Part shown: piece after piece, positions 1 through 14,557 of the stretch
Layout of the letters: every line of letters begins with the position of its first letter
How positions within the stretch are numbered: position 1 is the first letter of the stretch
Source of the DNA: a virus
Length of the DNA: 21,088 nt
Reading direction: 5' to 3' (one strand)
IMG/VR virus record: IMGVR_UViG_3300035696_002027
Notes under the pieces: generated by a model
Database searches by the model: none
The model's input: only the letters and a program-made list of their open reading frames with translations
Told to the model about the DNA's origin: nothing
Position numbers and translations under genes: made by a program

Positions 1-1203
1 GGTCTGCAGCCCCTTCCTCTTCTGGACACGGAAGAGGCACCCCTCAACCCGCCGGACTACGCGGGCACGCTTCTCGACCTTGCACGGCGCTTCTCCGCCA
101 ACCGTGTTGGTTACGAGGACTGGGCAACGCAGCTGTTCCCAGTCGTCGAGTCTACGGCTTCTCCGCCCGTACAGCCTTACGGTGTGGCCGTTCGGCCGCC
201 GGATCTCATCGGAGGTCTGGACGAGGTCTACGACAATTACTTGCCGCCGGAGTTTGCTGGGTCGGTCACCCAGCTGCCTCTCGGAATCTACTTCCGAGAC
301 AAGGACTTCCTAGGTAAATCGCTTTACCAACAGATCAACTCCACAGGAATCGGTGCCAACTCGTACGGCACCTTCACCTTCCTCGAGTACGAGTCCGCTC
401 TTGCTCCTTCGGCTCCTGGCACTTCGACCTGGGAAGGCACGGAGTTCGTTTGCGGCAATACGTCGGGTACGGCAGGGGTCGGCTCCGAAGCTGTTCTTCG
501 TGTCGACGGCACCTCGAACCCGGCGAGCGTCACGGTCTTCAAGACAACTCGTGGCGGAGCTGCCTGGTCCGCTACTCCGCCTTGGGTGGGTGGCGTCATC
601 TCGTCTCGCTTCCCCAAGCTGCGCCCGAACATCAACGCGGGTTCTGTTCTCGTCGGTTCGGCCTTCCTCGTTCGGACTCAGCCCGAGACTCAGGGGACGA
701 CCGAAATCCACATGGGCAGCGAACTGCAGATGTTCATCGTGACCCAAGCGGTTCCTGCCTACTTCAAGGAGACGAACGTTTCCCACTCGGCAGCAGGAAC
801 GAACGAGGGGTTCACAGCAGTTGACCGTTACCGTCTCCTCGGCAAGCCCCTCGAGGCCCGCCGCGGTTACGTGGACATGTCGATCCTGCCGGTTCCTCCG
901 CCTCTGTTCGTGACCAACATCTACGACAACCCGCTATTCTACGGTTCGGCGGACGTGTCGCTCAACTCGCAATTCCAGGGCACTCTGCCTGTCACGGTCA
1001 ACGGGCAGACGATGTTCACGCTTCCCAGCCGTCCGCAAGACCCGACTGCGGTTCTTGTGTGGCTCAATGGCGTAAAGCTCGAGAGTGGCGTGAACTACAC
1101 AGTCAGTGGCACCACCAACCAAACGCTGACGTACATCGTTTCGCTCAGCAATCCGGCGCTCGAGACGACAGACATACTCGAGGTTTGGTACCTTCTGTTC
1201 TAA
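1..1203 (+). CDS. 5'-truncated structural protein of unknown function (possibly a tail or baseplate component). Frame 1 has no stop codon from base 1, so the gene probably begins upstream of the window.
   Basis: Frame 1 is open from position 1 to the TAA at 1201-1203; the ORF-track start at 184 is a GTG. The protein is Gly/Thr/Ser-rich with beta-like segments (VWLNGVKLESGVNYTVSG) and no catalytic motifs. It sits immediately upstream of the giant fibre-like gene. Confidence 0.55.
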   Translation, partial: GLQPLPLLDTEEAPLNPPDYAGTLLDLARRFSANRVGYEDWATQLFPVVESTASPPVQPYGVAVRPPDLIGGLDEVYDNYLPPEFAGSVTQLPLGIYFRDKDFLGKSLYQQINSTGIGANSYGTFTFLEYESALAPSAPGTSTWEGTEFVCGNTSGTAGVGSEAVLRVDGTSNPASVTVFKTTRGGAAWSATPPWVGGVISSRFPKLRPNINAGSVLVGSAFLVRTQPETQGTTEIHMGSELQMFIVTQAVPAYFKETNVSHSAAGTNEGFTAVDRYRLLGKPLEARRGYVDMSILPVPPPLFVTNIYDNPLFYGSADVSLNSQFQGTLPVTVNGQTMFTLPSRPQDPTAVLVWLNGVKLESGVNYTVSGTTNQTLTYIVSLSNPALETTDILEVWYLLF

Positions 1204-1215
1204 TAGGACTATCCG

Positions 1216-4200
1216 ATGACGCAGCCGCGCAAAGAACAGATTAATGACCAGAGGACGTACTACACCCGGGTTGACTCCGTTGGTGTGACGACGCCCATCC
1301 CATTCGGCACGCCGGATGTGCCTGGTGGGACCGTTCAGACGATTCAAAACACGATCGTCGAGAACTACTACAACGAGTTCCTGGCTGCCACCATCACCGG
1401 AACTCCCGGCGGTGCAGAGCAAGACACTCCCGCGTACTTCTATGGAAACTCGGGACCTTTCTCTCCTCCCGTTTCCTCAGGCTCGACGTTTACCATCACA
1501 CTTCCTGGCATCAACTCCGGGAACCCCGTCGCCATCACATTCCAGCCGTCCGATGTTTTCGACATTGGCGGCATTCCGTACATCACGACCTCGCAAGTCG
1601 CCAAGCGGATCAACCTCGCGTTGACGGCCGCAGGAGTCTCTCCGACTTCCCCTGTCGCAGTGAACAGCAATGGTCAGCTCTTGCTGCTTTCCGCCAACAG
1701 CTCTGGATACACGTACGGAGAAACAGCGTTCATCACCGTCAACGACCTGACGGTCGGTGTTTGCACGGCTCTCGGTCTTGCACCCAGCAACACAGCCACT
1801 TCGGTCGGGATTTCGTCTCCCAAGCGCGGCATCGTCACGACGGTGATGAATGACACGCCCATCAGCCCCAACGGGCCACAGCTTGGAGGTCTGGTCCAGC
1901 TTCTGCTGCCGGATGCTTCGCCGGCGATAACGAAGTCGCCGATTCAGATCAACGTCGGTGGACTTGGGAATCTGCCTCTCTACCCATCAGGGCAGTCCAT
2001 CATAGGAGGCCTTCAGCAGTTCACGAACACTGCCGGGAACTCGAAGTTCACTGTCCAGTACCATAGGCAGGGCGCGGTCCCCGGCAAGGTTGTTACCAAG
2101 GGTGGAAACTTCTCTACCCTCTCGAATACCGACACTTTCCAGGTGACGGTCAATACAGTTAACCCAGCACTGTTCGGTCTACCAGGCACAATCTCTGCCG
2201 ACCCGGCCATTCAGACATACACCTTCACGGTCTCCTTCTCCAGCACCCCAACTGGAGCCAGCGACGTTATCGCAGCGGTGAACACCGCATGGAATGCGAA
2301 CGCGGTGGCTCAAGGATTCCCCGCTGGGACAGAAGCCGGACGCGGTGGTGTCTACGGCAATGTTGCCGGGCCCTGGCAGTTCATCAATGGTCTGGACCAG
2401 TTCTGGATCGTATTCAACGGTCAGAACCCAGCGACGAACGCGGTGAACATCACACCTCCTGGGTTCAACGGTGTGGTGACGTGGACTGCCACGGACCTGA
2501 TGACCTTCATCAATGCCCAGATCACAGCTTCGGCGGCGAACGGGCAAGGAACAGCATCAGTCGGTCCAGGCGGCACCATCCAGATCACGAGTGCGCTCAC
2601 TTCAGGTCCGAGTTCTACAGTTCAGATCATCGCTGGCGATCTGAACAATCCGTTTGCCGCTCCTACGGGTCCGGGCGATCTGGTGACGACGCTCGACAAG
2701 CTCGGAATTTCTCCTGGCGTTTACTCGGGGTCTGTAATTGCCAGGCCGTACGGCAACGCGGCCACTCCAGAAGACATTGTGTTTGCCTGTCCGGACCACA
2801 CGGTCCAAGACCCGTACGGCTCTCCATCCGGAATTACCATCACTGGTTCTTCTACCGTGATGGCGAAACTCGGCCTGAGTGGTACGACGATAACTGGAAA
2901 TGTCACGATCGGCACAGAGCCCGTGACCCCTCCGATCGTTCACGCCCTCATCCCGGAGATGATGTACTTCGGGGAAGTCCCGGAGAATATCGAGACTTCG
3001 ACCGATAGGTTCCTTACGACAGATGAACCTTCTCCTGTCGCTCCAGGCTCTGGAACTGGTAACCTCGGTACGTCTCCGCTTCTCGGTCTCGACGGAAAGA
3101 TCAACCCGGACCTCGTCCGCAAGGTGTTCGACGTACTGAGTGTCGACTCGCTTACGCTGGGTGCTAGGCAGACAGGCTACCTGCAGGGCAATGAGATAGC
3201 GCGAGTCCTCACTCCGTTCAGCGCGTCCTCGGGCAGCGGGATGACTTTGCTGTGGCAGGGAGTGTCTACTGCTGGACTGACGGGGATCGGCGCCTCGCAG
3301 ATCATGCGGCTATACGCCGACTACGCCGGCGGGTTGTGGCTCACTACGAATGCGGCTCGCTTTGGGGCAGCCACGCCGCTTCAGTGGGATAAAGACCCGG
3401 GTCAAACTGGCCAGTCGGCTTCGGCCATTTACATCGGACAGTCCACGACAGCGGGCGTTCCTAAGGTGGAGTTCCTGTACGCGCCGGCTTCTGCCTCGAA
3501 TCCGTTCATCTTCGGTGGGTCTATCGGGACAAGTGCCAACGCTCCTGTTGGGGTCGACCCTTCCGGCGCTCTTGGTGGAGCTCTCGCGTTCTTGCTCGCG
3601 GGAACTGCCAGCACAGCAAGCAACGAGAACATCATTCCTCGTCTTCTGGCCCAGGTAGCTCCGAACACCTTTACTCTGGTTTGGCAGACCGTTCAAGTCG
3701 CCGGAACAGAAAACGTCCGAGTTTACAGCTACGTTTCGGGAACCTCGCAAACCGAATACTGGTTGACCGTCAACGCTTCGTGGACTGGCATCGCGTGGAC
3801 GAAGGACACCTCCGGGGTGAACGCCTACGCTCTACAACTCCAGACGGGAAACAATCCCGGAACTCTGCCCACTGGCATCGGCGTACAGTCCGGGCTTTTC
3901 CTCTACTACCGTGCGCCGGGGGATAATACTCCGTGGGCTACCTGGACGGCCAATGGCGGGACCACGGGACCCAACAGCTTTGCTCCATTCTCCGTCACCG
4001 GTCAGAACGGGACGGGAGGTGGCACTCTCAACGCGAACAACCTGAGGCTCGCCGATCCTGGTCAGCCCAACTTCCCGGACATTAAGGCACGAATCTCTGT
4101 TCCGATGCGTCCGAGCGTGCCTGTTGGGGCTCCGTTCCGCACTGGGCGAGTCTTGGTATCCGAATTTGGTACTGGACCGCAAGGGACTCCCACCATGGGA

Positions 4201-5241
4201 GTCATCGGCGCAAACGGAGCGGCGACGATTACGGCTGTCGGTGGTGGGCCTGGCTCCAACCTCGCGACCATCAATGTCCCCAGCATTGTCACTACTGGTT
4301 TCACTGCTAGTATGCAGGGTCAGTGGGTCGAGATCACCGGAGCTGCAAATTCTGGAAACAATGGCATCTTCCAGATCGCCAACGTTCTGAGCACAAGCTC
4401 GGTCCAATATGTCAACCCGCACGCCTCGCTACCTGATGCGAATAACCCAAATATTTACTGGGCCATCGGTGGCTCCGGCTTCGGGCAGATCTGCCGAATC
4501 TACCGAGGCCAGGGGTTCCAGGGTAACGGCGGTTTCGGGCCTCAGCCGTACGACTTTGTGGCCATGACCGTGAATGCCGCCTGGAACAACGCCAACTGGA
4601 TTCCGGACCTTCCTGGCATCCCTGCTACAATGCAGATGTGGTTCGCGGCTCCGGAAAATCAGGGTGGTGTCAATGCCGGAACCGGATACACGCAGTTCTT
4701 CACTGTTCAGCCTTCCGGCTTCACTCCGTGGGTCGATTCTGACTGGGTATGCGTGACTAGTATCAGCTCCAACGGAATCGAAGTTCCGCATTTGGATGAC
4801 ACATACAACATCAACGCCATACCTAACCTTGCCAACACGGCTACCCTGGTCAAGGCGTGGGGTAACATCATCATCGCTCCAGGGAATCCGCCCACGTTCT
4901 ACTGGTATCCAAACGGATCTGGCTCCAACGCTATCTTCGATAGCTACAATCTTTCCAGTATCTCTTGGTCGAGCGGAAACCCGTCCGCCGTCACTTTTAC
5001 GATGAACGCGGGAATGGATGCGGGGAACTTTATCGTGTTGGCAAAGCCGATTGCCAGCTTCATCGTCAACTTCCCGACTGAAGATTTCGAAGTTGGCGGA
5101 GTTCCGGCCGCCTCCAATCAGTTCGAGCTGCAGTTCTTTAATTTCTCTCCAGCTTCTTTCTGGGGAACTAGTGGACCGCCCACTAACTCCCTCGAGACTC
5201 TCGAAGGTGGAGCTGAGTTCATCGTGATCGGGAGGCAATGA
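1216..5241 (+). CDS. Giant (1341 aa) Gly/Thr/Ser/Ala/Asn-rich structural protein; putative tail fibre, tail spike or receptor-binding protein.
   Basis: A single uninterrupted 4-kb ORF, with ATG 12 nt downstream of AGGA. Composition is low-complexity (G, T, S, N, P, A) with no Walker or catalytic motifs. Such composition is typical of phage fibres and adhesins. The alternative-frame and antisense ORFs here are Arg/Ser-rich artefacts of high GC. Confidence 0.8.
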   Translation: MTQPRKEQINDQRTYYTRVDSVGVTTPIPFGTPDVPGGTVQTIQNTIVENYYNEFLAATITGTPGGAEQDTPAYFYGNSGPFSPPVSSGSTFTITLPGINSGNPVAITFQPSDVFDIGGIPYITTSQVAKRINLALTAAGVSPTSPVAVNSNGQLLLLSANSSGYTYGETAFITVNDLTVGVCTALGLAPSNTATSVGISSPKRGIVTTVMNDTPISPNGPQLGGLVQLLLPDASPAITKSPIQINVGGLGNLPLYPSGQSIIGGLQQFTNTAGNSKFTVQYHRQGAVPGKVVTKGGNFSTLSNTDTFQVTVNTVNPALFGLPGTISADPAIQTYTFTVSFSSTPTGASDVIAAVNTAWNANAVAQGFPAGTEAGRGGVYGNVAGPWQFINGLDQFWIVFNGQNPATNAVNITPPGFNGVVTWTATDLMTFINAQITASAANGQGTASVGPGGTIQITSALTSGPSSTVQIIAGDLNNPFAAPTGPGDLVTTLDKLGISPGVYSGSVIARPYGNAATPEDIVFACPDHTVQDPYGSPSGITITGSSTVMAKLGLSGTTITGNVTIGTEPVTPPIVHALIPEMMYFGEVPENIETSTDRFLTTDEPSPVAPGSGTGNLGTSPLLGLDGKINPDLVRKVFDVLSVDSLTLGARQTGYLQGNEIARVLTPFSASSGSGMTLLWQGVSTAGLTGIGASQIMRLYADYAGGLWLTTNAARFGAATPLQWDKDPGQTGQSASAIYIGQSTTAGVPKVEFLYAPASASNPFIFGGSIGTSANAPVGVDPSGALGGALAFLLAGTASTASNENIIPRLLAQVAPNTFTLVWQTVQVAGTENVRVYSYVSGTSQTEYWLTVNASWTGIAWTKDTSGVNAYALQLQTGNNPGTLPTGIGVQSGLFLYYRAPGDNTPWATWTANGGTTGPNSFAPFSVTGQNGTGGGTLNANNLRLADPGQPNFPDIKARISVPMRPSVPVGAPFRTGRVLVSEFGTGPQGTPTMGVIGANGAATITAVGGGPGSNLATINVPSIVTTGFTASMQGQWVEITGAANSGNNGIFQIANVLSTSSVQYVNPHASLPDANNPNIYWAIGGSGFGQICRIYRGQGFQGNGGFGPQPYDFVAMTVNAAWNNANWIPDLPGIPATMQMWFAAPENQGGVNAGTGYTQFFTVQPSGFTPWVDSDWVCVTSISSNGIEVPHLDDTYNINAIPNLANTATLVKAWGNIIIAPGNPPTFYWYPNGSGSNAIFDSYNLSSISWSSGNPSAVTFTMNAGMDAGNFIVLAKPIASFIVNFPTEDFEVGGVPAASNQFELQFFNFSPASFWGTSGPPTNSLETLEGGAEFIVIGRQ

Positions 5242-5864
5242 TGTTTCCGGTTATCTATCACGACACTATTGCTATTCCCAACAGGCAGGAATTCAACATT
5301 CGTGTGGATTCCTTGTCGGAGACTCAGCTAGTACTCCGAGCATGCAAATTCGTTGTAGGTGGTCAAGTCTACACGCTTGCTACTGACGTGTCATTCGACG
5401 CGACCAACATAAGTCTCATTGCGGAGTTGTGGGGAACTCCGGATGGGAAAGCACAGCTTCTTGTCTATGACCGTCGCATTCTTCGGTTCGTAGACATGGC
5501 TTCCGGCCAGGCGATGACCCAAACATACGGGTCTAGACTAAGGCCCGTTGTAGTTCATGTGTCTTACCACAAAAACCTGATCACCAACCAACAGTATATT
5601 GGTGATTATTTCCTAGTAAACAGGCTTCTGAAGTCCCAAGAAGTCCCAGCGGACAAGATTCTTCTTTCACCTTCATCGTCGCCACCGTCCCCAGCTGTTA
5701 CGGAAGCGAACGTCCCGGCTCTGCAAAAAGCCCTGGCTGCTTTTCAAGCTACGCAAACAGCTTCAGCCCCGCCACTCAAAAAGTGGTCGGAGCTGAACGC
5801 GACGGAGCAGCAGGAAATGATGGCTAAAGTCGCTGCTCAGATGGGTCTGGTCGCGAAGGCCTAA
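5241..5864 (+). CDS. Hypothetical protein, candidate fibre-assembly or accessory protein. Its start overlaps the stop of the giant gene.
   Basis: GGAGG at 5231-5235 is followed by ATGATG at 5238-5243. The second ATG (5241) has the correct 5-nt spacer and overlaps the upstream TGA, which indicates translational coupling. The ORF has a lower-GC centre. No recognisable motif. Confidence 0.55.
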   Translation: MFPVIYHDTIAIPNRQEFNIRVDSLSETQLVLRACKFVVGGQVYTLATDVSFDATNISLIAELWGTPDGKAQLLVYDRRILRFVDMASGQAMTQTYGSRLRPVVVHVSYHKNLITNQQYIGDYFLVNRLLKSQEVPADKILLSPSSSPPSPAVTEANVPALQKALAAFQATQTASAPPLKKWSELNATEQQEMMAKVAAQMGLVAKA

Positions 5865-6448
5865 TTGCAGATCCCGCAGGCCTGACCAGCACCCATTCCG
5901 TGCGACTGGCAGGGACCGAGGTTTCCTGCGAGGCACGTGAGGACCGATCCTCCCTGCTGGAAGCAACCGATGATGGTCTGCTCCTGCTGGCAGGTCAGGG
6001 GCTCGTTCCAGGTGTCGTTGCAGTAGTTCTCGATGCAGTTGACACACTGGAAGCTGCCGGCGTCCCAGTCGAGCTGGCAGGTCGTGCCGGAGTCCATACC
6101 GCCAGAGCTCGAGCCGGATGAACTTCCACTGGAGCTGCCGGAACTCGAACCTGAGCTGGATCCACTGCTTGACCCGCTGGAGCTTCCCGAGCTGGATCCA
6201 GAAGAACTTCCGCTGGAGCTGCCCGAACTGGATCCGGACGAACTTCCCGATGAACCCCCGCTGGAGGAACCCGTCTCGTTTCCTGCCTCGGTCGGCGGGT
6301 CGCCGGTCTTCTGATCGGGCGACGAGTCCTGCCCTGACATGAGGTCGGAGTCGCCTCCGGCGTCCGGAGCATCCCCCGAGCTGAAGGAACTTCCGCCGCA
6401 TCCGACGAGGGCTGCACAGAAAACCAGAAAACTGACTGCGAACTTCAT
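5861..6448 (-). CDS. Secreted lipoprotein with a long (GSSS)n flexible linker and a Cys-rich C-terminal domain.
   Basis: The minus-strand ATG at 6446-6448 is preceded by GGAGGAGAG. The N-terminus MKFAVSFLVFCAALVGCGG is a signal peptide with lipobox LVGC. About 15 tandem GSSS units follow, then a 10-Cys domain (CQLDWDAGSFQCVNCIENYCND...ACGICN). Its stop codon overlaps the convergent stop of 5241..5864. Confidence 0.7.
   Translation of the reverse strand: MKFAVSFLVFCAALVGCGGSSFSSGDAPDAGGDSDLMSGQDSSPDQKTGDPPTEAGNETGSSSGGSSGSSSGSSSGSSSGSSSGSSSGSSSGSSSGSSSGSSSGSSSGSSSGSSSGGMDSGTTCQLDWDAGSFQCVNCIENYCNDTWNEPLTCQQEQTIIGCFQQGGSVLTCLAGNLGPCQSHGMGAGQACGICN
6098..6271. repeat. Imperfect tandem 12-bp repeat array encoding (Gly-Ser-Ser-Ser)n on the minus strand; the plus-strand reading is ELPELDP-like.
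   Basis: Units such as gaacttcc(a/g)ctggagctgcc(g/c)gaact... recur across about 170 bp. The translation is SSSGSSSG about 15 times within the lipoprotein. Confidence 0.7.
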
Positions 6449-6461
6449 TTCATTCTCTCCT

Positions 6462-6524
6462 CCAATTGGCTACATGGAGGCCATCAGAATTTCCGAATCC
6501 CAATTGGATACTTCCAATTGGATA
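6462..6524. promoter_or_regulatory. Divergent intergenic control region with three copies of the palindrome CCAATTGG; the second and third are followed by ATA, and all three by AT-rich sequence. A candidate plus-strand sigma70-like promoter TTGGAT-18 nt-TATGAC (6518..6547) lies inside it.
   Basis: CCAATTGG occurs at 6462-6469, 6500-6507 and 6514-6521 in the AT-richer 120-bp gap between the divergent genes 5861..6448(-) and 6570..7001(+). The -35-like hexamer overlaps the third palindrome. Confidence 0.35.
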
Positions 6525-6569
6525 TACTTATCTGGCCTTCCTATGACCCGCCGGAGCCGAGGAAGCACC

Positions 6570-7001
6570 ATGAAGATTCGTACCGCAATGCTGTTCAGTC
6601 TCTGCCTCACGGTGGCGCTTTTCAGCTCGAGTCTCGCGTTCGCACAGACCCCGTCTCCTGCGCCTGCTGTGATCACGACGCAGTCTGCGATCGTGGTCAT
6701 TCTCGCGCTGATCGTGGGCTACATCGGCCAGGCGGTCAACACGGGAAACCTCTTCGGCATCGTGACGACGCCGAAGGCATGGATTCCCTACCTGACCCTC
6801 TTCGGGTCGTTCCTCGCGGCCTTCGGGACCTCCATTCAAGGAGATTCCACACTCAACAGCGCTGCCTGGTTCAACGCGGTGACTGCCGGGTTCTCGGCTC
6901 TCATGGCGGCGGCGGGCGGTTCCGCGGCGCACACTCACCTCAACGCTCACAAGACCACGGCCGCCAAGACGGCCCCTCCCCCTCCCGCAAAGGCGGCCTG
7001 A
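6570..7001 (+). CDS. Small membrane protein with a cleavable signal peptide and 2-3 transmembrane segments (holin-like or envelope protein, function unknown).
   Basis: ATG at 6570 follows GAGGAAG with a 4-nt spacer. The N-terminus MKIRTAMLFSLCLTVALFSSSLAFA-QT is followed by hydrophobic helices (AIVVILALIVGYIG, WIPYLTLFGSFLAAFG, AVTAGFSALMAAAGG). The upstream ATG/GTG extension (6339) has no RBS and crosses the divergent regulatory region. Confidence 0.6.
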   Translation: MKIRTAMLFSLCLTVALFSSSLAFAQTPSPAPAVITTQSAIVVILALIVGYIGQAVNTGNLFGIVTTPKAWIPYLTLFGSFLAAFGTSIQGDSTLNSAAWFNAVTAGFSALMAAAGGSAAHTHLNAHKTTAAKTAPPPPAKAA

Positions 7002-7003
7002 AC

Positions 7004-7408
7004 ATGAAGCTCTTCCGCGTTTTCGCGCCGGCTGCAATCGTCCTGGGCCTCGGCCTGGCGGTCGGTGGAACTCAGACTGGCTGCGGCTGGTTCTCGAGCA
7101 ACAGTCCTCAGGTCACCTCTGACGTTGGACAGATCGCTAGCTGCGTCATCGCCCAGATGTTCCAGGGCGTGACTGACCCGCTCAAGATCGTGTCAGCCTG
7201 CGTTCCGGCGACTCTCGCGGACGTGGAGCAGATCATCGCGAGCATCATCAACTACTACGACCAGCCTGACGCGGCCGTGGGTGACGCGCACCCCGGCGTC
7301 GGCAAGCCGCCCTTCGACAAGCTGCCCGCCAGCGTCACGAGCGCCCAGCTCGCAAGCTTCAAGCAGCTTCACGATCAGACCAAGGCCCAGATGGCAGGAG
7401 CGAAGTGA
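7004..7408 (+). CDS. Secreted or lipoprotein-like small protein (N-terminal signal sequence; function unknown).
   Basis: ATG at 7004 lies 2 nt after the upstream TGA (6999-7001). MKLFRVFAPAAIVLGLGLAVGGTQTGC is a signal peptide with a Cys shortly after. Its stop TGA 7406-7408 overlaps the next ATG. Confidence 0.55.
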   Translation: MKLFRVFAPAAIVLGLGLAVGGTQTGCGWFSSNSPQVTSDVGQIASCVIAQMFQGVTDPLKIVSACVPATLADVEQIIASIINYYDQPDAAVGDAHPGVGKPPFDKLPASVTSAQLASFKQLHDQTKAQMAGAK

Positions 7409-8280
7409 TGGCATTCTTCAAGGGAGCCAAGAAGTCTCAGCCGCACAAGCTCGCCTCCAAGAAGGCGGGAGCTTCTCACCCGGTCATCGCCGTGATGCTT
7501 GCTGCGGCGAGCATTCCGGCGTCCTGTGACCTCGCCCCGTACGAGCCTACTCGGCTCGACCAGGGCCAGTCCGGGTCGTGTACGGCACACTCCTTCTCGG
7601 GGAGCACCTCGACGGCTTGCCGCAAGGCGGGCATCGTCCTCGGATTCGAGCCCAGCCCGCGCGAGACCTACGCCACCACGCGTGGAATCGAGCGTGCTGC
7701 GGCGACCCCGGCAGGGACCCCTCTTCCCGCCCTCACGGACTCGGGCGCTGAGCCCGCGGATGTGTTCACGGCCGGGTCGACCTTCGGCACTTCGCCGATG
7801 CTCGGCCCGACTCCGGACGGCCGCAACTCCGACATTTGGACGGCCGCTGACACGACCGCCCAGCCGGAGAATGTCAACAACGAGCCCGATGGCAACCAGC
7901 TGCAGACGGCTGGTACTTCCATCGTCACGGGCGAGTACGCTATCGACCCGACTGCCGCCAACGTTTCGGACGTTGTCGCTGCAGCCATCGCTTCGGGCTT
8001 CCCGGTCTACGTCGCGTTCTTCTGCGACACGGCCTTCGAGCAGCTGCAGGTCGGCCAGATCGCGCAGCCGCCCAACACGAACGACCCGAACGGCGGCGGT
8101 CACGCCGTCTATCTGTCCGGTTACACCACGAACGCGGACGGAACCCGCACCTTCATCCTCAGCAACAGCTGGGGAACCGGATGGTGCGACAACGGCCGGT
8201 GCCTCGTCAGTGAGGCATGGCTCAAGGCGACGTGGGAGCTCTACGTCATGGACGTTCAAGTCCAGAAGGCGGCCGCGTGA
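7408..8280 (+). CDS. Papain-family (C1A) cysteine peptidase with an N-terminal basic plus weakly hydrophobic signal-like segment.
   Basis: All three papain signature blocks are present. DQGQSGSCTAHSF matches the QGSCGSCWAF block with the catalytic Cys and the oxyanion-hole Gln. GGGHAVYLSGYT matches the His block DHAVAAVGYG. NSWGTGWCDNGRCLV matches the block NSWGTGWGENGY. AGGAG lies 9 nt upstream, and the ATG overlaps the upstream stop (TGATG). Confidence 0.8.
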   Translation: MAFFKGAKKSQPHKLASKKAGASHPVIAVMLAAASIPASCDLAPYEPTRLDQGQSGSCTAHSFSGSTSTACRKAGIVLGFEPSPRETYATTRGIERAAATPAGTPLPALTDSGAEPADVFTAGSTFGTSPMLGPTPDGRNSDIWTAADTTAQPENVNNEPDGNQLQTAGTSIVTGEYAIDPTAANVSDVVAAAIASGFPVYVAFFCDTAFEQLQVGQIAQPPNTNDPNGGGHAVYLSGYTTNADGTRTFILSNSWGTGWCDNGRCLVSEAWLKATWELYVMDVQVQKAAA

Positions 8281-8735
8281 TGCGATCCATCCTCTTCTTT
8301 TCGGTCATCTGCGGTGTTGCCTGCATGGGAATGGCGGGGTGCCCTCCGACTCCACCCAACCCTCCAGTCACCGATTCAGGCGTCGCGGACACCTCGCCTC
8401 CTCCGCCTCCGGTCCCAACAGCGGATTCGGCTCCTACACCTCCTCCGCCGACTCCCGTCGTCGACGCATCGCCGCCTCCGCCGGCGCCTGTGGTTGACGC
8501 GGGCCCTGCTCCTTCCACGGATCCGTGTGTGAACGCATGCGCCCAGATGAACTCTGTGGGCTGCGCTCAGCAGGCGGACTGCGGCAAGGTCCTCGGACTC
8601 GTCAACGCCAACCGGACAAATCGTAACCCCAAGACCGGAAATGCACTGACCTGCACCGATCTTCTGGGCGTGAAGTCCTCGGCCGACGTGACCGCGAACG
8701 GCTGGACCTGCGGCGGCGCAAGCAAGAAGCACTGA
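8280..8735 (+). CDS. Proline-rich lipoprotein with a C-terminal 6-Cys domain.
   Basis: ATG 8280-8282 overlaps the upstream TGA 8278-8280. MRSILFFSVICGVACMGMAGC is a signal peptide with lipobox. A roughly 80-aa Pro/Thr/Ala-rich linker (PPTPPNPPV...PPPPAPVV) follows, then a Cys-rich globular tail. Confidence 0.65.
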   Translation: MRSILFFSVICGVACMGMAGCPPTPPNPPVTDSGVADTSPPPPPVPTADSAPTPPPPTPVVDASPPPPAPVVDAGPAPSTDPCVNACAQMNSVGCAQQADCGKVLGLVNANRTNRNPKTGNALTCTDLLGVKSSADVTANGWTCGGASKKH

Positions 8736-8764
8736 AGTCCACGTCTTGAGCGTAAGATCGGGTG

Positions 8765-10849
8765 ATGGTCTCGCCCGCTCTTCTTGAGACGATTCGACAG
8801 ATCCGCACGAAACAGGATCTGAAGCTCCGGCCCTCGCCGTACTTGCGCGACAAATACGTCGACGAGTACGGCGACGAGCGTCCTGTCGCTTTGCGCAACT
8901 ACCAGGCGCAAGGCGTCATGAACATGCTTCAGATGGAGCGGATGCTCCTCGGGGATGACACTGGTCTAGGCAAGACCCTCGAGGTCCTGTCGACCATCGG
9001 CTACGTGTGGATGAAGGAACCTGAGTATGTTCCTATCATCATCACGACCAAGTCCGCGCTCTTCCAGTGGGAAGGCGAGACCAAGCGCTTCATGCAGGGG
9101 ATGGAAGCGGTCACCGTCCACGGTTTGCCCTTCGAGAGGCACGCCATTTACGAGGAGTTCTTCCTCCGTCACGACCCGGAAAAGAAGCGGCTGCTGATCT
9201 TGTCATATGACATGATCATGTACGACATGCATGAGGCCGTGATCAAGGAGAAGAAGAAATCTCCACGTCCAGGCTTCAACAAGGAACTCGAGGCAGCACG
9301 GGAAGCCAGTAAAGCTGCGGTTATCCTCTTCGATGCCGAGAAAGAGGTGTTCGAGAAGCACTTCCGTGACAAGCCCTGGACGATGCATCAGTACATCGCC
9401 GACTATGCCACCAAGGAAGTGAAGCCGGACCCTCCGCCTGGATTCGAGCCCGAAGATAATAAGAGGCTCTTGGCTTACTGCGAGACTCGTCAAGCGGCCA
9501 TCGACGCGGAACAGAAACTCAAGGACCTACGCCTCGAGGCCGCTCCCCCAAAGCATGTCCCGGGCATCATCGACTACGTGCAGCGGATGAAAGAAGCTCA
9601 TCCGCATATCAAGTTCGTCCTGGTTATGGACGAAATGCACAAGCTCAAGAACCACAAGAGCCAGTTCCACGAGAAGACGGCGCTCCTGTCGAAGTACGCG
9701 CAGCGTCTCTATGGTCTGACGGCCACGCCGGTCAAGAACCGACTCATGGAATTCTGGAGTCTTTTCAAGATCATTCAGCCGTCTCTGTTCCCGAAGATCT
9801 CGCACTTCCAGAACGAATACTGTGTCACCCGGCTCCAGGCTATCGGTGGCGGCAGGCAGGTGCTTCTCGTCGTCGGATACAAAGACCTCGAGAAGTTCGT
9901 CGCGATGATCGAGCCTTATTACCTGTCGCGCAAGAAGCATGACGTGGCCAAAGAGCTCCCGGAACTCATCTCGCTCGAAATCGAGTGCGAGATGACGGAG
10001 CTCCAGGAGGAGCTTTACGACCTGGCCGAGACGGGTCTTCTGGCCAAGAACGACGACCCGGATACCCAGGAATCGGACCTCTTGAGCGCCATGGTCATGT
10101 GCCAGCAGGCGACCGATTCTCCGGAGCTGCTCGAGGATGAGGTCGGCAATAAATACGTCGGCCCGTCGTCCAAGATAGACGCTCTCATCGAACTGCTGCA
10201 GAACGAGGCGGCGGACGAGAAGATAATTGTCTTCTCCAAATACGAGAAGATGATCACTCTCGTCGAGGCGGCTCTCAAGAAAGAGAAGATCGCCTGCACG
10301 CGCATCACGGGCAAAGAGAACAGCGCTCAGGTCCGAGACAAGAATCGGGCGAAGTTCCAGGACATGAACTCGGGCGTCAACGTAATTCTCATCACGACAG
10401 CCGGCTCCGAAAGCCTCAATCTGCACTCGGCCGAGAACTTCGCGCTTCTCGACATGCCCTGGAGTTGGGGCGACTACCTGCAGCTCATCGGACGCGCTCT
10501 TCGAATCGGGTCGCTGCACAAGACGGTGGTCGCGCACCACTTTTTGGGTACGAAGCGGGACGGCGGCAAGACCATCGATCACCAGGTCCTCAAAGCGCTG
10601 CGAACGAAGAAGAAGCTTGCGGACAAGGTCGCCGGAGAGAACCTCAAGGGCGGATTGAAGTTTGTCGAGTCCGACTCCATGAAGGATGTTCTGGACGGAA
10701 TGCTCGCTTATCAGAACAAGCTCAAGCCCGGGACCAAGAAGACGCTCAAGAAGAGCAAGGCAAAAGTTGCAGCCGCGGCCGCCGCACCAGTTGCAACAGT
10801 CGAAGAGGTCCCGCTGGCCATCACGTACTTGGACCTGTCGGACGTGTAA
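8765..10849 (+). CDS. SNF2/RAD54-family DNA-dependent ATPase/helicase.
   Basis: Motif I LGDDTGLGKT, motif II DEMHKLKN (DExH), motif III LTATPVKNRLMEFWSL, and C-terminal helicase motifs (ILITTAGSESLNL, QLIGRALRIGS). ATG at 8765, with a GTG at 8762 just upstream. Confidence 0.9.
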   Translation: MVSPALLETIRQIRTKQDLKLRPSPYLRDKYVDEYGDERPVALRNYQAQGVMNMLQMERMLLGDDTGLGKTLEVLSTIGYVWMKEPEYVPIIITTKSALFQWEGETKRFMQGMEAVTVHGLPFERHAIYEEFFLRHDPEKKRLLILSYDMIMYDMHEAVIKEKKKSPRPGFNKELEAAREASKAAVILFDAEKEVFEKHFRDKPWTMHQYIADYATKEVKPDPPPGFEPEDNKRLLAYCETRQAAIDAEQKLKDLRLEAAPPKHVPGIIDYVQRMKEAHPHIKFVLVMDEMHKLKNHKSQFHEKTALLSKYAQRLYGLTATPVKNRLMEFWSLFKIIQPSLFPKISHFQNEYCVTRLQAIGGGRQVLLVVGYKDLEKFVAMIEPYYLSRKKHDVAKELPELISLEIECEMTELQEELYDLAETGLLAKNDDPDTQESDLLSAMVMCQQATDSPELLEDEVGNKYVGPSSKIDALIELLQNEAADEKIIVFSKYEKMITLVEAALKKEKIACTRITGKENSAQVRDKNRAKFQDMNSGVNVILITTAGSESLNLHSAENFALLDMPWSWGDYLQLIGRALRIGSLHKTVVAHHFLGTKRDGGKTIDHQVLKALRTKKKLADKVAGENLKGGLKFVESDSMKDVLDGMLAYQNKLKPGTKKTLKKSKAKVAAAAAAPVATVEEVPLAITYLDLSDV

Positions 10850-11296: not shown

Positions 11297-12112
11297 ATGG
11301 CTGCATGCACGATTTGTGGCAACGCCGGCGTTGTAGAACGTGACGGCAAACTCCTCGAGTGCGAATGCTCGGAGCTGCGTCGTATTGCCGCAAGCATGCC
11401 GTCCTATATCAGGACGGCCAAAGTCCAAGAAGCTCACCTAAAGACTTTGGTGGATGGCAAGACCCGACTGATAGAGTCGGTGGACCGGTCGCTCTACATC
11501 ACGGCCTATTGGAACGACATGCGAGCGTTCATCAAAGTCGTGATGCTCAAGCATCGCAATAAGTTCCTGCGCATCATCTCGGACCGGGAGCTGCGGGATG
11601 TTTTTGTCGGCTCCGCCTCAAGGAGCGCCCGCGGGGAAGACAGCAAAGAGGCTGTCTACAATAGCATCGAAGACTTGGTCAAATCCCCGGCTCTTCTCAT
11701 CATCCGGCTCAATGAGCTGAAGTACAAGAACAAGGCGGCTTCCAGCGTTCTAGAAGAAGCCATGTGCTACAGGCTGGATAGGAACCAGCCTATCTGGCTG
11801 CTCAACAATCCGCTCGACCGGTTCGTCCGTGGTAGTGTCGCTTGGTCCGAGACTGTGGAGTCCCTTTGCTCCTCAATACTTCATGTCCGCGTGGACCAGA
11901 TCAACCAAGTCGACGGATTCATGGAACCACGTCCTGTGAACTCCGTGGCTGACAGTCCTCTCGCCCCTGAACAAGCAGCGCCGTCGAGGTCGACCTCGCC
12001 AAAGTCGACTTCAAAGAAAACAGTTCGTTCAGCGCCTGATGAGGAAGAGGAAGAGCTTCCCAGCGGGCTGGGTGCTTTCGGTCGGGGTATCAAGCCGGGG
12101 AGGAGACTCTAG
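11297..12112 (+). CDS. Zn-ribbon-containing protein of unknown function; positional candidate for a helicase loader or replication accessory protein.
   Basis: N-terminal CTICGN-x14-CEC (C-x2-C...C-x-C) with a helical remainder and no Walker A. It sits directly upstream of the DnaB-like helicase with a 2-nt gap. Confidence 0.5.
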   Translation: MAACTICGNAGVVERDGKLLECECSELRRIAASMPSYIRTAKVQEAHLKTLVDGKTRLIESVDRSLYITAYWNDMRAFIKVVMLKHRNKFLRIISDRELRDVFVGSASRSARGEDSKEAVYNSIEDLVKSPALLIIRLNELKYKNKAASSVLEEAMCYRLDRNQPIWLLNNPLDRFVRGSVAWSETVESLCSSILHVRVDQINQVDGFMEPRPVNSVADSPLAPEQAAPSRSTSPKSTSKKTVRSAPDEEEEELPSGLGAFGRGIKPGRRL

Positions 12113-12114
12113 TC

Positions 12115-13623
12115 TTGGAGCGCATACTTCGCAGCGTATTGCAGGTAGGTGGTCATCCGGAAGTGGATGAAGCCCTCCAAAACTGGATGAGGCTCCAGGA
12201 GTACGAGCTTGATTATCCGCACGACGAAGATCGGAAGATCTACAATTACCTCAAGACGTTCTACAACCAAATGTCGGCGCCGCCCGACATTACTCTCGTC
12301 CGCGAGTTTTTCGAGAAGCAGGATGATGTAGAGACCGTCAACCGCGTCAACGAGATTTCGAAGACGCAGCACCAGATTCGTACGAACTTCATCGCGATTG
12401 TCCGTTCGCAGCAGGAGCAGCAGCAGGTCAAGGCGTTCGTTTTGGCTGCGCGCGACGCTTCGGCTATTGCGGAGCACGGGCGTAATCTCGAGAAGCCCGT
12501 CAACGGAAAGAAGCTGCTCAAGGGAGTAGTCGACGCCACCAACTTCTTCTACGAGAAAATGTCGGGTTTCGCCCGGGTCGAGACCGGCGAGAAGCTCGAG
12601 GGCATCGTCACTGACGACGCTGATGAGTTCCTGGAAGAGTACGAACAGGGCGAGCTAACAAGCAAGTTCGCGGGTCGCAACGTCATCGGCCTCGAGCCGG
12701 TCGACGTGGTCTGCAAGGGCCACAGGTCCGGCGAATTTTGGGTGCATTGCGCTGCTCCCGGAGAGCTGAAGACGACGCTCGCCCTGAACTACGCCTACAA
12801 CAATTCATACCTGTTCGGTCGCAACATCTTCTACGGAATCTTCGAGATGCCGTACAAGCAGCTTCGCCGGCAGCTTTTCGTTGTGCACTCCTCGCACGGC
12901 AAGTTCGTCACCGATTGGTATCGAGAAGACCGCAAGCGCGGGCTCCCTCCCGAGCAGTGCTACGTCGGGCTCGACTACCAGAAGGTGCGCGACTACGAAC
13001 TGGACGAGATCGGCAAGAAGCGTCTGCGCATCGTCGCGCAAGACTTCAAGGCCACCTGCCCTGGCAAGCTCTACATCTGGCGGCCCCAAGGGCAGGGCAC
13101 TCTCGTCGAAGACGTGCACCGCCGGGCCGAGATGTTCCACAACAAGTACGGATGCGACGGCATCGTGCTCGACCACATGGGATGGCTCAAGCCTAAGTTC
13201 AAATCGGTCAACACGATAGATCGCGTCAACGACGTGGTGTCCGAGTGTCGAATGATGGCGCTCTCCTTTGCTCGAGGGCGCACCGTCCCGGTCTTCGGCC
13301 TCTACCAAATCAACCGGCAGGGAAAGCTTCGGGCAGACAAAGAAGACGGCCGCTACGACTTCTCAGCAATTGCATACGCCAACCGCATCGAGCAGGATGC
13401 GGACGTTATCACCTACACCTACTTGAATCCGGCCCTCCGGAAAGACGGCAAGTTCTATCTGGGCTGTATGAAGAACCGTGACAATCCGGTCTTCGACAGG
13501 ATGGTGGGGAAGATAATTTGGCAGTCCAAGCGCATGCGGCATATTGATTCTGGTCTTCTGGATGTAAACAACGACCAAGCCATCATCCGCACGAGCCTCA
13601 CGATGGAAGATATGGTCGCTTAG
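12115..13623 (+). CDS. DnaB-family replicative helicase with a non-canonical Walker A.
   Basis: Blocks alignable to DnaB: AAPGELKTTLALN against ARPSMGKTAFALN, IVLDHMGWL against IDYLQLM, YQINRQG against SQLNR, and NRIEQDADVITYTY against SIEQDADLIMFIY. A TTG start at 12115 sits 9 nt after GGGGAGGAG; an alternative ATG is at 12184. The Walker A second Gly is replaced by Leu (G-E-L-K-T-T). Confidence 0.8.
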   Translation: MERILRSVLQVGGHPEVDEALQNWMRLQEYELDYPHDEDRKIYNYLKTFYNQMSAPPDITLVREFFEKQDDVETVNRVNEISKTQHQIRTNFIAIVRSQQEQQQVKAFVLAARDASAIAEHGRNLEKPVNGKKLLKGVVDATNFFYEKMSGFARVETGEKLEGIVTDDADEFLEEYEQGELTSKFAGRNVIGLEPVDVVCKGHRSGEFWVHCAAPGELKTTLALNYAYNNSYLFGRNIFYGIFEMPYKQLRRQLFVVHSSHGKFVTDWYREDRKRGLPPEQCYVGLDYQKVRDYELDEIGKKRLRIVAQDFKATCPGKLYIWRPQGQGTLVEDVHRRAEMFHNKYGCDGIVLDHMGWLKPKFKSVNTIDRVNDVVSECRMMALSFARGRTVPVFGLYQINRQGKLRADKEDGRYDFSAIAYANRIEQDADVITYTYLNPALRKDGKFYLGCMKNRDNPVFDRMVGKIIWQSKRMRHIDSGLLDVNNDQAIIRTSLTMEDMVA

Positions 13624-14135
13624 GCGGCTCTCTTCACGATCATCGAGCACATCTCCACAAATTCATCGTGGGTCATGTCAGTTTTCATCTGATTCACAGT
13701 TCTGGTGACCCATTGAATGTTGTCGATCGCATTTAGCCCTCCACGTGATCTCGGCACTATGTGATCGAGTGTTGCGTTATCGCCTGGGATTAGCTCGATT
13801 CCCGTGTAGACGCATTTTCGCTCTTGTTTTTCAAACGACTCCAAGAGCGCTGGTCCTAGGGACTGGTCTCCCATATTGTTTTGAGCACAGATGCGGAACC
13901 AACATTCTATTCCATATTTTCCGCACGTTGCTGGTTCACGACCACACTGATAGCAGACTCTGTTCTTAAGTCGGTGTTTCCTAACACCTTGGATATACTT
14001 GGTTTGTTTCTTCCCGCATTTACTGCATTTATCAGTTTTACGGTCATTTTTCTTGCCGCAAGCCGTGCATAACCCTTTCTTCTTTCGTTCAGCTCTGCGC
14101 TTCTTCATATAATTTCGACCATATTCTTTACCCAT
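13620..14135 (-). CDS. Free-standing HNH-family endonuclease (homing-endonuclease-like) with N-terminal Cys4 zinc ribbons.
   Basis: LDHIVPRSRGGLNAIDNIQWVTRTVNQMK is an H-N-N variant HNH core. CTACGK...CSKCGK and CYQCG...CGKYGIEC are zinc ribbons. GC is markedly lower (about 45%) than the flanks. It is the only minus-strand gene in this block, and its stop overlaps the DnaB stop by 4 nt. Confidence 0.85.
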   Translation of the reverse strand: MGKEYGRNYMKKRRAERKKKGLCTACGKKNDRKTDKCSKCGKKQTKYIQGVRKHRLKNRVCYQCGREPATCGKYGIECWFRICAQNNMGDQSLGPALLESFEKQERKCVYTGIELIPGDNATLDHIVPRSRGGLNAIDNIQWVTRTVNQMKTDMTHDEFVEMCSMIVKRAA

Positions 14136-14196
14136 ATTACTCTATCCGATAGAAGTCGTAAGAGTAATAAGATAGTTGCCGGATTCCGGATCCGGA
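14135..14196. promoter_or_regulatory. Structured leader and operator-like region. It contains a 9-bp inverted repeat (TATTACTCT/AGAGTAATA, 14135-14143 and 14161-14169) that includes the HNH start codon, and a perfect 12-bp palindrome TCCGGATCCGGA (14185-14196).
   Basis: Read directly in the AT-rich divergent gap between the HNH gene (-) and ORF 14234/MVP (+). Confidence 0.3.
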
Positions 14197-14233
14197 CCTA
14201 AAACCCGGAGCACCTGGCTGGTAGAGTGGCTCA

Positions 14234-14557
14234 TTGGCCACAATCAGTCATTGGGGTGCAGAGGTTGAAGCGGACCCGGAGTGGCTCCTCGACGAGCCGG
14301 CTTTTGGTTTACTCCAGAAGCCTATGGCCGACGCCTTTGCGGAGGTCGAGAAATACGACGTGCAGGTTCAAGGCGCGGTCCTTGTGCGGGGCCCCGATTC
14401 AGTATTGGAGCTGACCGTTTACAGTAAAGACTCGTCTAGACAGCACGTCGCTAAAATCCCATATTGTCTAGAGTGCCAAATGCCTTGGCCTGCAGGAAAC
14501 CCGCATCCGGACAACGATTGTCCGATGAAGGTAGTTGATCACGTCATGTCCACATAG
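14234..14557 (+). CDS. Small hypothetical protein (107 aa from TTG; internal ATG at MADAF) with a C-terminal CxxC...C motif.
   Basis: ORF upstream of the MVP gene in the same orientation. The start is uncertain (TTG, weak SD). C-terminal YCLECQ...DCP. Confidence 0.3.
   Translation: MATISHWGAEVEADPEWLLDEPAFGLLQKPMADAFAEVEKYDVQVQGAVLVRGPDSVLELTVYSKDSSRQHVAKIPYCLECQMPWPAGNPHPDNDCPMKVVDHVMST

Follow-up and report, generated by a model that had tools for sequence, protein, structure and literature searches.

A papain-family peptidase of the xylellain type, encoded between a membrane protein and a lipoprotein in an uncultured phage, as a candidate lysis enzyme

Papain-fold proteases can be encoded directly beside a small dedicated partner: the staphostatin gene directly follows the staphopain gene, an established arrangement of a cysteine protease and its cognate inhibitor. 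In phages, lysis enzymes are of interest as a source of antibacterials, and the types of catalytic domain known among them are few. In Lysin A of mycobacteriophages, C39-like domains from the papain family are recognized peptidase modules (PMC3314691). C1A peptidases of the xylellain type have reached giant viruses by horizontal transfer, as they have Myoviridae and Siphoviridae (Caudoviricetes), and prokaryotic C1A enzymes that carry no signal peptide are intracellular (PMC10380794). Because that paper already records such transfer, a xylellain-type C1A enzyme in a phage is rare rather than new. Here, we report on a stretch of 21,088 nucleotides (nt) from an IMG/VR virus record (IMGVR_UViG_3300035696_002027; the whole stretch is referred to as ‘the window’), in which a gene for a 290-amino-acid (aa) peptidase (7408..8280, + strand) lies between genes for a membrane protein and a lipoprotein. 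We assign the peptidase to its family, follow the three genes through other phages and weigh the proposal that the enzyme is made in the cytoplasm, released by a holin and used as a lysis endopeptidase together with the lipoprotein.

A preliminary description, made from the letters of the window, had read the gene product as a true papain-family (C1A) enzyme, as opposed to a CHAP or NlpC/P60-type protein, and had named a PF00112 profile search as a way to check this. That search returned Pfam Peptidase_C1 (PF00112) with 35.6 bits, above the curated cut-off of 20.7 (E = 1.3e-8). The match to the lone peptidase sequence spans residues 184-264 only, whereas the profile of the whole family, when compared with xylellain, spans positions 5-286. 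PHROG 16701, annotated ‘peptidase’, matched as well (4.7e-6), as did—weakly—Peptidase_C39_2 (E = 0.031), and the Pfam scan found neither an I29 domain nor any other N-terminal domain. Among PDB sequences, phmmer retrieved cathepsins K, B, H and L, dipeptidyl peptidase I, Der p 1 and a bacterial ‘cysteine protease’.

The alignments place the catalytic set of the peptidase—Gln52, Cys58, His232 and Asn253—opposite Gln19, Cys25, His159 and Asn175 of papain. The oxyanion-hole Gln52 (codon 7561-7563) and the catalytic Cys58 (codon 7579-7581) stand at the two ends of QGQSGSC (7561..7581, + strand), which, as DQGQSGSC, is matched by QGQCGSC in cathepsin K and by DQGRIGSC in xylellain. The segment from the catalytic His232 (codon 8101-8103, in GGGHA) to Asn253-Ser254-Trp255 (8101..8172, + strand; Asn253 codon 8164-8166, in NSWG) likewise aligns with the His and Asn blocks of both enzymes; in the phmmer alignment, GGHAVYLSGY...NSWGTGW pairs with NHAVLVVGY...NSWGESW. 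A database search yielded 138 homologs, all from metagenomes or metagenome-assembled genomes (MAGs), 38 of which (27-86% identity) were used for an alignment; at a stricter level, the family amounts to 104 clusters at 50% identity with E <= 1e-30. His232, Ser254 and Trp255 are invariant across the 38 sequences, and Gln52, Cys58 and Asn253 are at least 90% conserved. All four papain blocks that the preliminary description had listed are hence present, correctly aligned and conserved. The same alignment revealed no conserved disulfide pattern, which fits folding of the peptidase in the cytoplasm.

An AlphaFold2 (AF2) model built on the 38-homolog alignment reached a mean predicted local distance difference test score (pLDDT) of 95.8 and a predicted template-modelling score (pTM) of 0.93. 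Foldseek matched this model to 286 PDB chains at E <= 0.001; the best 50 were all C1A peptidases (xylellain, cathepsins B, K, L and H, Der p 1 and Lpg2622), with xylellain of Xylella fastidiosa (3OIS) on top (E = 9e-14, TM-scores 0.69/0.75). Comparison of the family profile with xylellain (3ois_A) gave E = 7.5e-42 and aligned profile positions 5-286 with chain residues 31-290; the runner-up profile matches, at ~1e-14, were cathepsins and covered the C-terminal lobe only. Judged by the PF00112 match, the aligned tetrad and the predicted fold, the protein is, as first proposed, a genuine C1A peptidase; it belongs to the short bacterial xylellain type and is predicted to be an active enzyme.

The open reading frame (ORF) runs on the + strand from ATG 7408 to the stop TGA at 8278-8280. 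A GTG at 7405 lies in frame and is an alternative start; ATG 7408 was taken as the start because homologs begin with MAFF, MGFA or MPFA. A Shine-Dalgarno-like AGGAG is found 9 nt 5’ of the start. On either side the gene overlaps its neighbor by a single nucleotide within a TGATG, just as the preliminary description had it: the stop TGA of the upstream ORF (7406-7408) shares a base with the peptidase ATG (7408-7410), and the peptidase stop shares one with the ATG of the next ORF (8280-8282). Translational coupling joins the peptidase gene to a cassette of genes for envelope proteins. A promoter and terminator scan of positions 5000-9200 gave nothing informative. At its other end the protein terminates in the tail VQVQKAAA (8254..8277, + strand), and an Ala-Ala C-terminus recurs in 38 of 100 full-length peptidases of the phage clade (AA or VA in 48 of 100; ~2% expected), with endings such as ...QKAAA, RKAAA and KEAA among homologs P0001-P0107. 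None of 13 ordinary bacterial-type relatives ends in this way.

How the enzyme could reach its target depends on the reading of its first 40 residues (7408..7527, + strand). The preliminary description had pointed to a basic stretch followed by a weakly hydrophobic, Ala/Ser-rich helix and had likened the two to signal-arrest-release (SAR) or lipoprotein signals. The stretch KKSQPHKLASKKAGASHP-VIAVMLAAASIPASC is indeed present at the N-terminus; its reading as an export signal fails on the shortness of the hydrophobic core, on charges in homologs, on an unconserved Cys40 and on homology to the xylellain extension. The 40 residues align with the N-terminal extension of xylellain (chain residues 31-~60) and are modeled with pLDDT values of 86, 94, 98 and 98 per ten residues; the supposed hydrophobic helix is an 8-residue helix (residues 25-32) packed within the fold at pLDDT 98. 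Its uncharged hydrophobic core, V26-I36, measures 10-11 residues. The best 15-residue Kyte-Doolittle mean at the N-terminus is 2.09, against 1.93 for an internal strand-helix segment of the same enzyme, and the median of the best 15-residue values over the N-termini of 104 homologs is 0.93. Many homologs with 45-55% identity carry Arg, Lys, Asp or Glu within the segment, for example VIRAALDAT, AVKRALAAASLP and PKIAAKLAAG. Within the 38-sequence alignment, Cys40 (P-A-S-C40) is confined to the window protein and P0002—a listing of N-termini adds P0001 and P0003—while other homologs have Val or Ala at this position, and the surrounding ‘IPASC-DL’ is the counterpart of the first mature strand of papain-type enzymes (‘LPxSVDL’; ALPPKVDL in xylellain).

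Three kinds of export signal were considered and set aside. A SAR endolysin N-terminus, a conserved, weakly hydrophobic transmembrane (TM) segment of ~20 residues, does not agree with a core of 10-11 residues, charged homologs and a packed helix; a lipobox, [LVI][ASTVI][GAS]C, founders on Cys40, which is replaced by Val or Ala elsewhere; and a twin-arginine translocation (Tat) signal was dismissed since the ‘RR’ of GARRSHP, besides being unconserved, stands ~15 residues ahead of the hydrophobic run. In the phage clade the extension instead has a conserved motif of its own, G-A-[KR]-x-S-H-P-x-K-L-A ... S-H-P-x-I-A, where ordinary bacterial relatives (P0108-P0119) have YGWxPDxPDxRD. By alignment and model, then, the extension is a predicted stand-in for the propeptide that holds neither a signal peptide nor a lipobox. 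In xylellain, the N-terminal segment reportedly blocks the active site, and a bound ribonucleotide is said to be regulatory. By homology, the extension of the phage enzyme is, most simply, probably an autoinhibitory segment lying over the active site.

To see which genes accompany the peptidase, the neighborhoods of 24 loci (cited by L numbers where needed) were compared by tblastn and by hidden Markov models (HMMs) built from neighbor genes. Immediately upstream lies a membrane protein, which in the window is divided into two ORFs: an N-terminal half (6570..7001, + strand, 143 aa) with a signal-like N-terminus, about three TM helices and a basic tail, which is a holin candidate, and a C-terminal half (7004..7408, + strand, 134 aa) with one N-terminal TM helix, a ‘TGCGW’ motif and a Cys-containing domain of ~100 aa. 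The same division into adjacent ORFs, the second beginning at its own TM helix, is seen in L004 and L005, while most lineages keep the polytopic partner in one piece, as do L001 (9228-10001), L019, L020 and L021 with a single multi-TM ORF of 217-264 aa. A custom HMM located the C-terminal domain directly 5’ of the C1 gene in the window and in L001-L005, L009, L011 and L019-L021. A membrane protein upstream and lipoproteins on both sides had been described previously: the lipoprotein downstream stands, and the one upstream is a detached part of the membrane protein. Reading ORF 7004-7408 as a lipoprotein was rejected, given that its ‘QTGC’ is a non-canonical lipobox and that other lineages have a single membrane ORF here.

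The downstream partner (8280..8735, + strand, 151 aa) is a lipoprotein with the lipobox MAG/C, a Pro-rich linker of ~60 residues and a helical, six-Cys domain of ~65 aa. Its family, 112-156 aa long across loci and 16-17% Pro, shares this layout: a lipobox xAG/C or xAA/C followed by PP, then the Pro-rich linker and finally the C-domain, ~65 residues in which six Cys are conserved. The AF2 model assigned pLDDT 91-95 to the C-domain and 52-68 to the linker; the C-domain matched no known fold and showed no similarity to known inhibitor families. Wherever the lipoprotein was detected (the window, L001-L008, L010, L012 and L019-L024), it stands directly after the C1 gene, and, conversely, a search with the lipoprotein family returned 44 proteins, with a C1 gene preceding each one whose context was read. 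Even the divergent peptidases of L023 and L024, paired with the lipoprotein, keep the Gln, Cys, His and NSWG. The sole interruption of the pair was seen in L022, where a 116-aa ORF (5574-5924, - strand), which may be a small mobile endonuclease, sits between the two genes. One apparent peptidase-lipoprotein fusion, P0072 (396 aa, on a 75.9-kb ENA contig), was discarded as a likely frameshift or assembly error, since the peptidase C-terminus is lost and a lipoprotein signal lies internally. Neither the membrane protein nor the lipoproteins nor any other small neighbor matched a family in Pfam, PHROGs, NCBIfam or PADLOC, and to name them holin, spanin or defense proteins is accordingly not warranted.

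The genes for membrane protein, peptidase and lipoprotein (the trio, below) occur together both in the jumbo-phage lineage of the window (with L001-L005; see below) and in unrelated phage contigs of 27-102 kb. Phages whose peptidases are 35-60% identical to that of the window have no further window gene in common, arguing that the three genes move as one unit. No member of the peptidase clade was found in a scan of GTDB representative genomes, and the clade therefore looks restricted to phages. All its peptidases stand alone at 250-350 aa; fusions to cell-wall domains were not seen within the clade.

L019 is a 59-kb contig whose peptidase is 60% identical to that of the window. Its tail module, with DUF2460, Gp84_N/BR0599 and a 1339-aa Phage-tail_3 host-specificity protein, is followed by an ORF of 148 aa, by a coiled-coil protein that has a TM helix at its C-terminus and by a small Cys-rich lipoprotein. 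The trio comes next, in the order membrane protein, C1 peptidase and lipoprotein, and after it an ORF of 56 aa and an Rv2525c-like glycoside hydrolase that lacks a signal. This is the usual place of a lysis cassette. In L006, L010, L013, L019 and L024, the distance between the C1 gene and an Rv2525c-like hydrolase gene (PF08924) is 0.4-3.6 kb. The literature searched held nothing specific on C1/PF00112 domains in endolysins or lysis cassettes; as far as such searches could be run, the fixed trio appears to be undescribed and its occurrence in a lysis-cassette position unreported.

Relatives are scarce among sequenced phages. Against 50,697 phage records, tblastn returned no match for the window peptidase and none for the lipoprotein; an ordinary xylellain-type relative, P0109, matched three, namely FLC9, MMB025 and LR756511 (595 kb, unannotated). 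The earlier remark that C1A peptidases are uncommon in phages accordingly holds, with zero and three matches. In the cultured Alicyclobacillus phage MMB025, the matching protein is annotated as an endolysin (PV686781.1, CDS0095, 753 aa) and encoded after the tail fibers and before the integrase. Pfam divides it into Peptidase_C1 (39-225; 27.9 bits, cut-off 20.7), an Ig-like stretch, an Rv2525c_GlyHyd-like domain (403-572, 1e-28) and PG_binding_1 (603-659, 1.7e-18). In addition, phage proteins of this fold in BFVD bear the UniProt names ‘Peptidoglycan binding-like’, ‘N acetylmuramidase’ and ‘Lysin A’.

Taken together, we give about an even chance to the proposal that the peptidase is a lysis endopeptidase made in the cytoplasm, dependent on a holin and acting together with the lipoprotein. 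The enzyme would be synthesized and would fold in the cytoplasm, as the missing signal, lipobox and conserved disulfides indicate, and its 40-residue extension, by homology to xylellain, might keep it quiet by covering the active site. Late in infection, the upstream membrane protein could act as a holin whose lesions admit the enzyme to the periplasm. There it might cut a peptide target in the envelope, be it the stem peptides or cross-links of peptidoglycan or a protein tethering the outer membrane, in concert with a glycoside hydrolase and with the downstream Pro-rich lipoprotein of outer-membrane type, which may dock or regulate the enzyme. The MMB025 fusion makes peptidoglycan peptides the conservative guess at the target. 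C1A peptidases, however, belong among the protein endopeptidases, and the strictness with which the gene is paired with a lipoprotein of outer-membrane type hints at a protein target or a docking partner. Among the three functions offered in the preliminary description, it is the ‘unconventional lysis enzyme’ that gains circumstantial support, from the position of the trio in L019, the nearby hydrolases and the MMB025 fusion; a secreted effector is left without support, as the SAR or lipoprotein reading of the N-terminus fails. It is a long shot that the trio drives the last lysis step in diderm hosts by proteolysis, in place of spanins or in addition to them. In such a device, which would be undescribed and would rely for its envelope work on a true papain-family protease instead of a muralytic enzyme, C1 released by the holin would dock on the six-Cys domain of the lipoprotein and either cut proteins stapling the outer membrane to the wall or process the pair of membrane protein and lipoprotein.

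Several observations weigh against a lysis endopeptidase. C1A enzymes are classically protein endopeptidases, and we know of none shown to cut peptidoglycan, with its D-amino acids. No holin family of Pfam, PHROGs, NCBIfam or PADLOC matches the membrane protein; the interchangeable parts of lysis cassettes do not usually keep so strictly to a single lipoprotein family; and in the jumbo-phage lineage of the window no glycoside hydrolase or other muralytic gene was found within +/-10 kb. The C1 domain of MMB025 is a distant relative only, 31.7% identical to P0109, itself ~27-31% identical to the window protein, and the genes around gp163 of Burkholderia jumbo phage FLC9 are hypothetical and offer no lysis context. 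The Ala-Ala end common in the clade, finally, resembles ssrA-type degradation ends recognized by ClpXP or Tsp. Part of this evidence also speaks for a cytoplasmic protease with a regulatory or host-takeover role, cleaving host or phage proteins, whose envelope neighbors would reflect operon history or pre-export substrates. We regard this as unlikely, yet credible. Besides the ClpXP-type tail and the FLC9 homolog, it can draw on the lack of an export signal and of a conserved disulfide pattern, on an extension shared with intracellular xylellain-type enzymes, on the general assignment of signal-less C1A proteins (PMC10380794) and on a GroES gene directly upstream in L007/L008. What it does not readily explain is why the same membrane-protein and lipoprotein neighbors, often with overlapping stop and start codons, recur across phages that share nothing else; canonical endolysins, too, are signal-less, and the MMB025 protein joins C1 to cell-wall domains.

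The constancy of the neighbors would also suit a protease-partner pair, in which the six-Cys lipoprotein domain is an inhibitor (staphostatin-like), a substrate or a pro-form, for instance part of a spanin-like pair trimmed to disrupt the outer membrane. Co-occurrence of both genes in both directions in the contexts read, their 1-nt overlap in the window, the compact and confidently modeled C-domain and the known staphopain-staphostatin precedent all fit such a pair; the predicted compartments, with the peptidase cytoplasmic and the lipoprotein exported, do not, no similarity to a known inhibitor family was found, and the P0072 ‘fusion’ is better read as a frameshift, so that we find this relationship quite doubtful. 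A virion-associated tail lysin, cutting the wall at entry and encoded at the end of the tail module, is very unlikely: the gene does lie downstream of a 1341-aa structural-looking protein in the window and of the host-specificity protein in L019, and it does lack a signal peptide, but a stand-alone enzyme of 290 aa has no structural or tail-attachment domain, and its constant neighbors are host-envelope proteins, not virion parts. Holin-independent export through a SAR or lipoprotein-type N-terminus, as first suggested, we consider highly improbable. The closest subfamily has what makes it tempting, namely an uncharged, Ala-rich V26-I36 (15-residue mean 2.09) preceded by six Lys and followed by ASC, and this is outweighed by the unconserved Cys40, a run of 10-11 residues, charges in homologs of 45-55% identity, a packed helix at pLDDT 98 and the alignment with the xylellain extension. 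A prohead protease was rejected outright, both fold class and neighbors being wrong.

The remainder of the window (58% G+C) gives an impression of the phage itself. The order of its genes is repeated, with peptidases of 82-86% identity, on contigs from JGI (242 kb), from IMG/VR (viral, 240 kb) and from an NCBI MAG (72.7 kb), and a major-vault-protein-like gene (14612-17275, + strand, 887 aa; MVP_shoulder 1.2e-23, Vault_3 1.6e-8) encodes a protein 42-43% identical to those of the ‘uncultured phage’ records LR756500, LR756501 and LR756503 (462-735 kb). Given the syntenic contigs of ~240 kb and the vault-protein relatives in phage records of 462-735 kb, the window derives from an uncultured jumbo phage. 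The vault-like protein is 70-79% identical in the sister contigs L001 and L004, and the presence of a vault-shell-like protein in huge phages is puzzling.

Downstream of the trio, the window encodes an SNF2 helicase (8762-10849, 695 aa), DnaB (12115-13623), an HNH endonuclease (13620-14135, - strand; HNH_5, HNH_4, HNH) just after dnaB, a DnaG zinc-ribbon protein (17533-18183) and DnaJ (18662-19762, - strand), the last with a J domain, CXXCXGXG and the C-terminal domain. By tblastn, the HNH gene has no counterpart in the syntenic loci L001-L005, and it is probably a recent homing-endonuclease insertion. In L004, the 242-kb sister contig, the SNF2 helicase (11367-14483) measures 1038 aa, against 695 aa in the window, and a faint LAGLIDADG_3 match suggests an intein or homing-endonuclease insertion there. 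Chaperone genes recur, as DnaJ in the window and as GroES (Cpn10, 1.6e-17) at 9710-10000 in L007/L008, where it immediately precedes the C1 gene. The window DnaJ is 32-38% identical to the bacterial DnaJs found, which come from many phyla and give no clue to the host.

On the upstream side, the reading frame is open from base 1, and the 339-aa ORF at 184-1203 (+ strand) corresponds to the C-terminal end of a larger protein, 1610-1616 aa long in L001 and L004. It is followed, upstream of the peptidase cassette, by the structural-looking protein of 1341 aa (1216-5241). Neither of these two proteins gave a family match, and the 1341-aa protein showed no similarity to the host-specificity protein of L019. 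Between it and the membrane protein lies a divergent lipoprotein gene (5861..6448, - strand), a possible member of the cassette, whose product has the lipobox LVG/C, a Ser/Gly-rich (SSSG)n linker and a Cys-rich C-domain. The lipoproteins at this position in L001 and L004 are weakly similar to it; the one in L001 has 357 aa and 29 Cys, and the high variability between sister phages is as expected of a surface or exclusion protein. Small Cys-rich lipoproteins are encoded upstream of the membrane protein in L019 and L020 as well.

If the lysis proposal is true, the enzyme classes known from phage lysis would grow by a complete papain-family protease, and perhaps a further envelope target would come with it. 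In many uncultured phages, some with genomes of ~240 kb (IMGVR_UViG_3300047499_000113, Ga0556619_0000064), the family keeps the company of a membrane protein and a lipoprotein. The present analysis also sets right a tempting misreading, in that an Ala-rich N-terminus is here a built-in extension of the enzyme rather than an export signal. Expression work should reckon with holin-dependent release and with possible N-terminal autoinhibition.

Set beside xylellain (3OIS), the phage enzyme shows a full-length profile match, the same Gln, Cys, His and Asn, a short extension replacing the I29 propeptide, a similar size and the same lack of a signal. It differs in sequence (~21% identity), in the N-terminal motif that the phage clade has in place of YGWxPDxPDxRD, in an inter-lobe insert of ~30 residues (TPDGRNSD...NVNxEPD), in the frequent Ala-Ala end and in the constant flanking genes for a membrane protein and a lipoprotein. 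With the MMB025 endolysin, it shares Peptidase_C1 and a place after the tail-fiber or tail genes, and the Rv2525c-like domain that is fused there is encoded beside the C1 gene in several phages of the clade; the MMB025 protein, by contrast, is a multidomain chain with PG_binding_1 from a phage of a Gram-positive host, it has no annotated membrane-protein or lipoprotein partners, and ‘endolysin’ is its annotation. The C39-like N5 domain of Lysin A and the CHAP and NlpC-P60 domains are clan-CA cysteine peptidase folds serving as wall-cleaving modules of phages, much as proposed here, although they are minimal domains within modular endolysins, whereas the window enzyme is a stand-alone, two-lobe C1A with the Gln and the Asn-Ser-Trp.

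Two further systems resemble the locus in its genetic layout. Like staphopain and staphostatin, the trio couples a gene for a papain-fold protease to a small, constant downstream partner; staphostatins are cytoplasmic beta-barrels, whereas the trio partner is an exported helical lipoprotein with no similarity in sequence or fold. The lambda cassette of holin, endolysin and Rz-Rz1 differs in that no member of the trio matches a holin or spanin family, including those of PHROG, and in that the enzyme is a C1A peptidase instead of a muramidase, transglycosylase or amidase. With its 112-156 aa, the lipoprotein exceeds typical o-spanins in size and carries a folded six-Cys domain, and the inner-membrane partner is polytopic in most lineages, whereas the lambda i-spanin is a single-TM coiled coil. 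What the two have in common is the arrangement: a membrane protein, a signal-less enzyme and a small, Pro-rich, Cys-bearing lipoprotein, encoded by overlapping genes at the end of a structural module.

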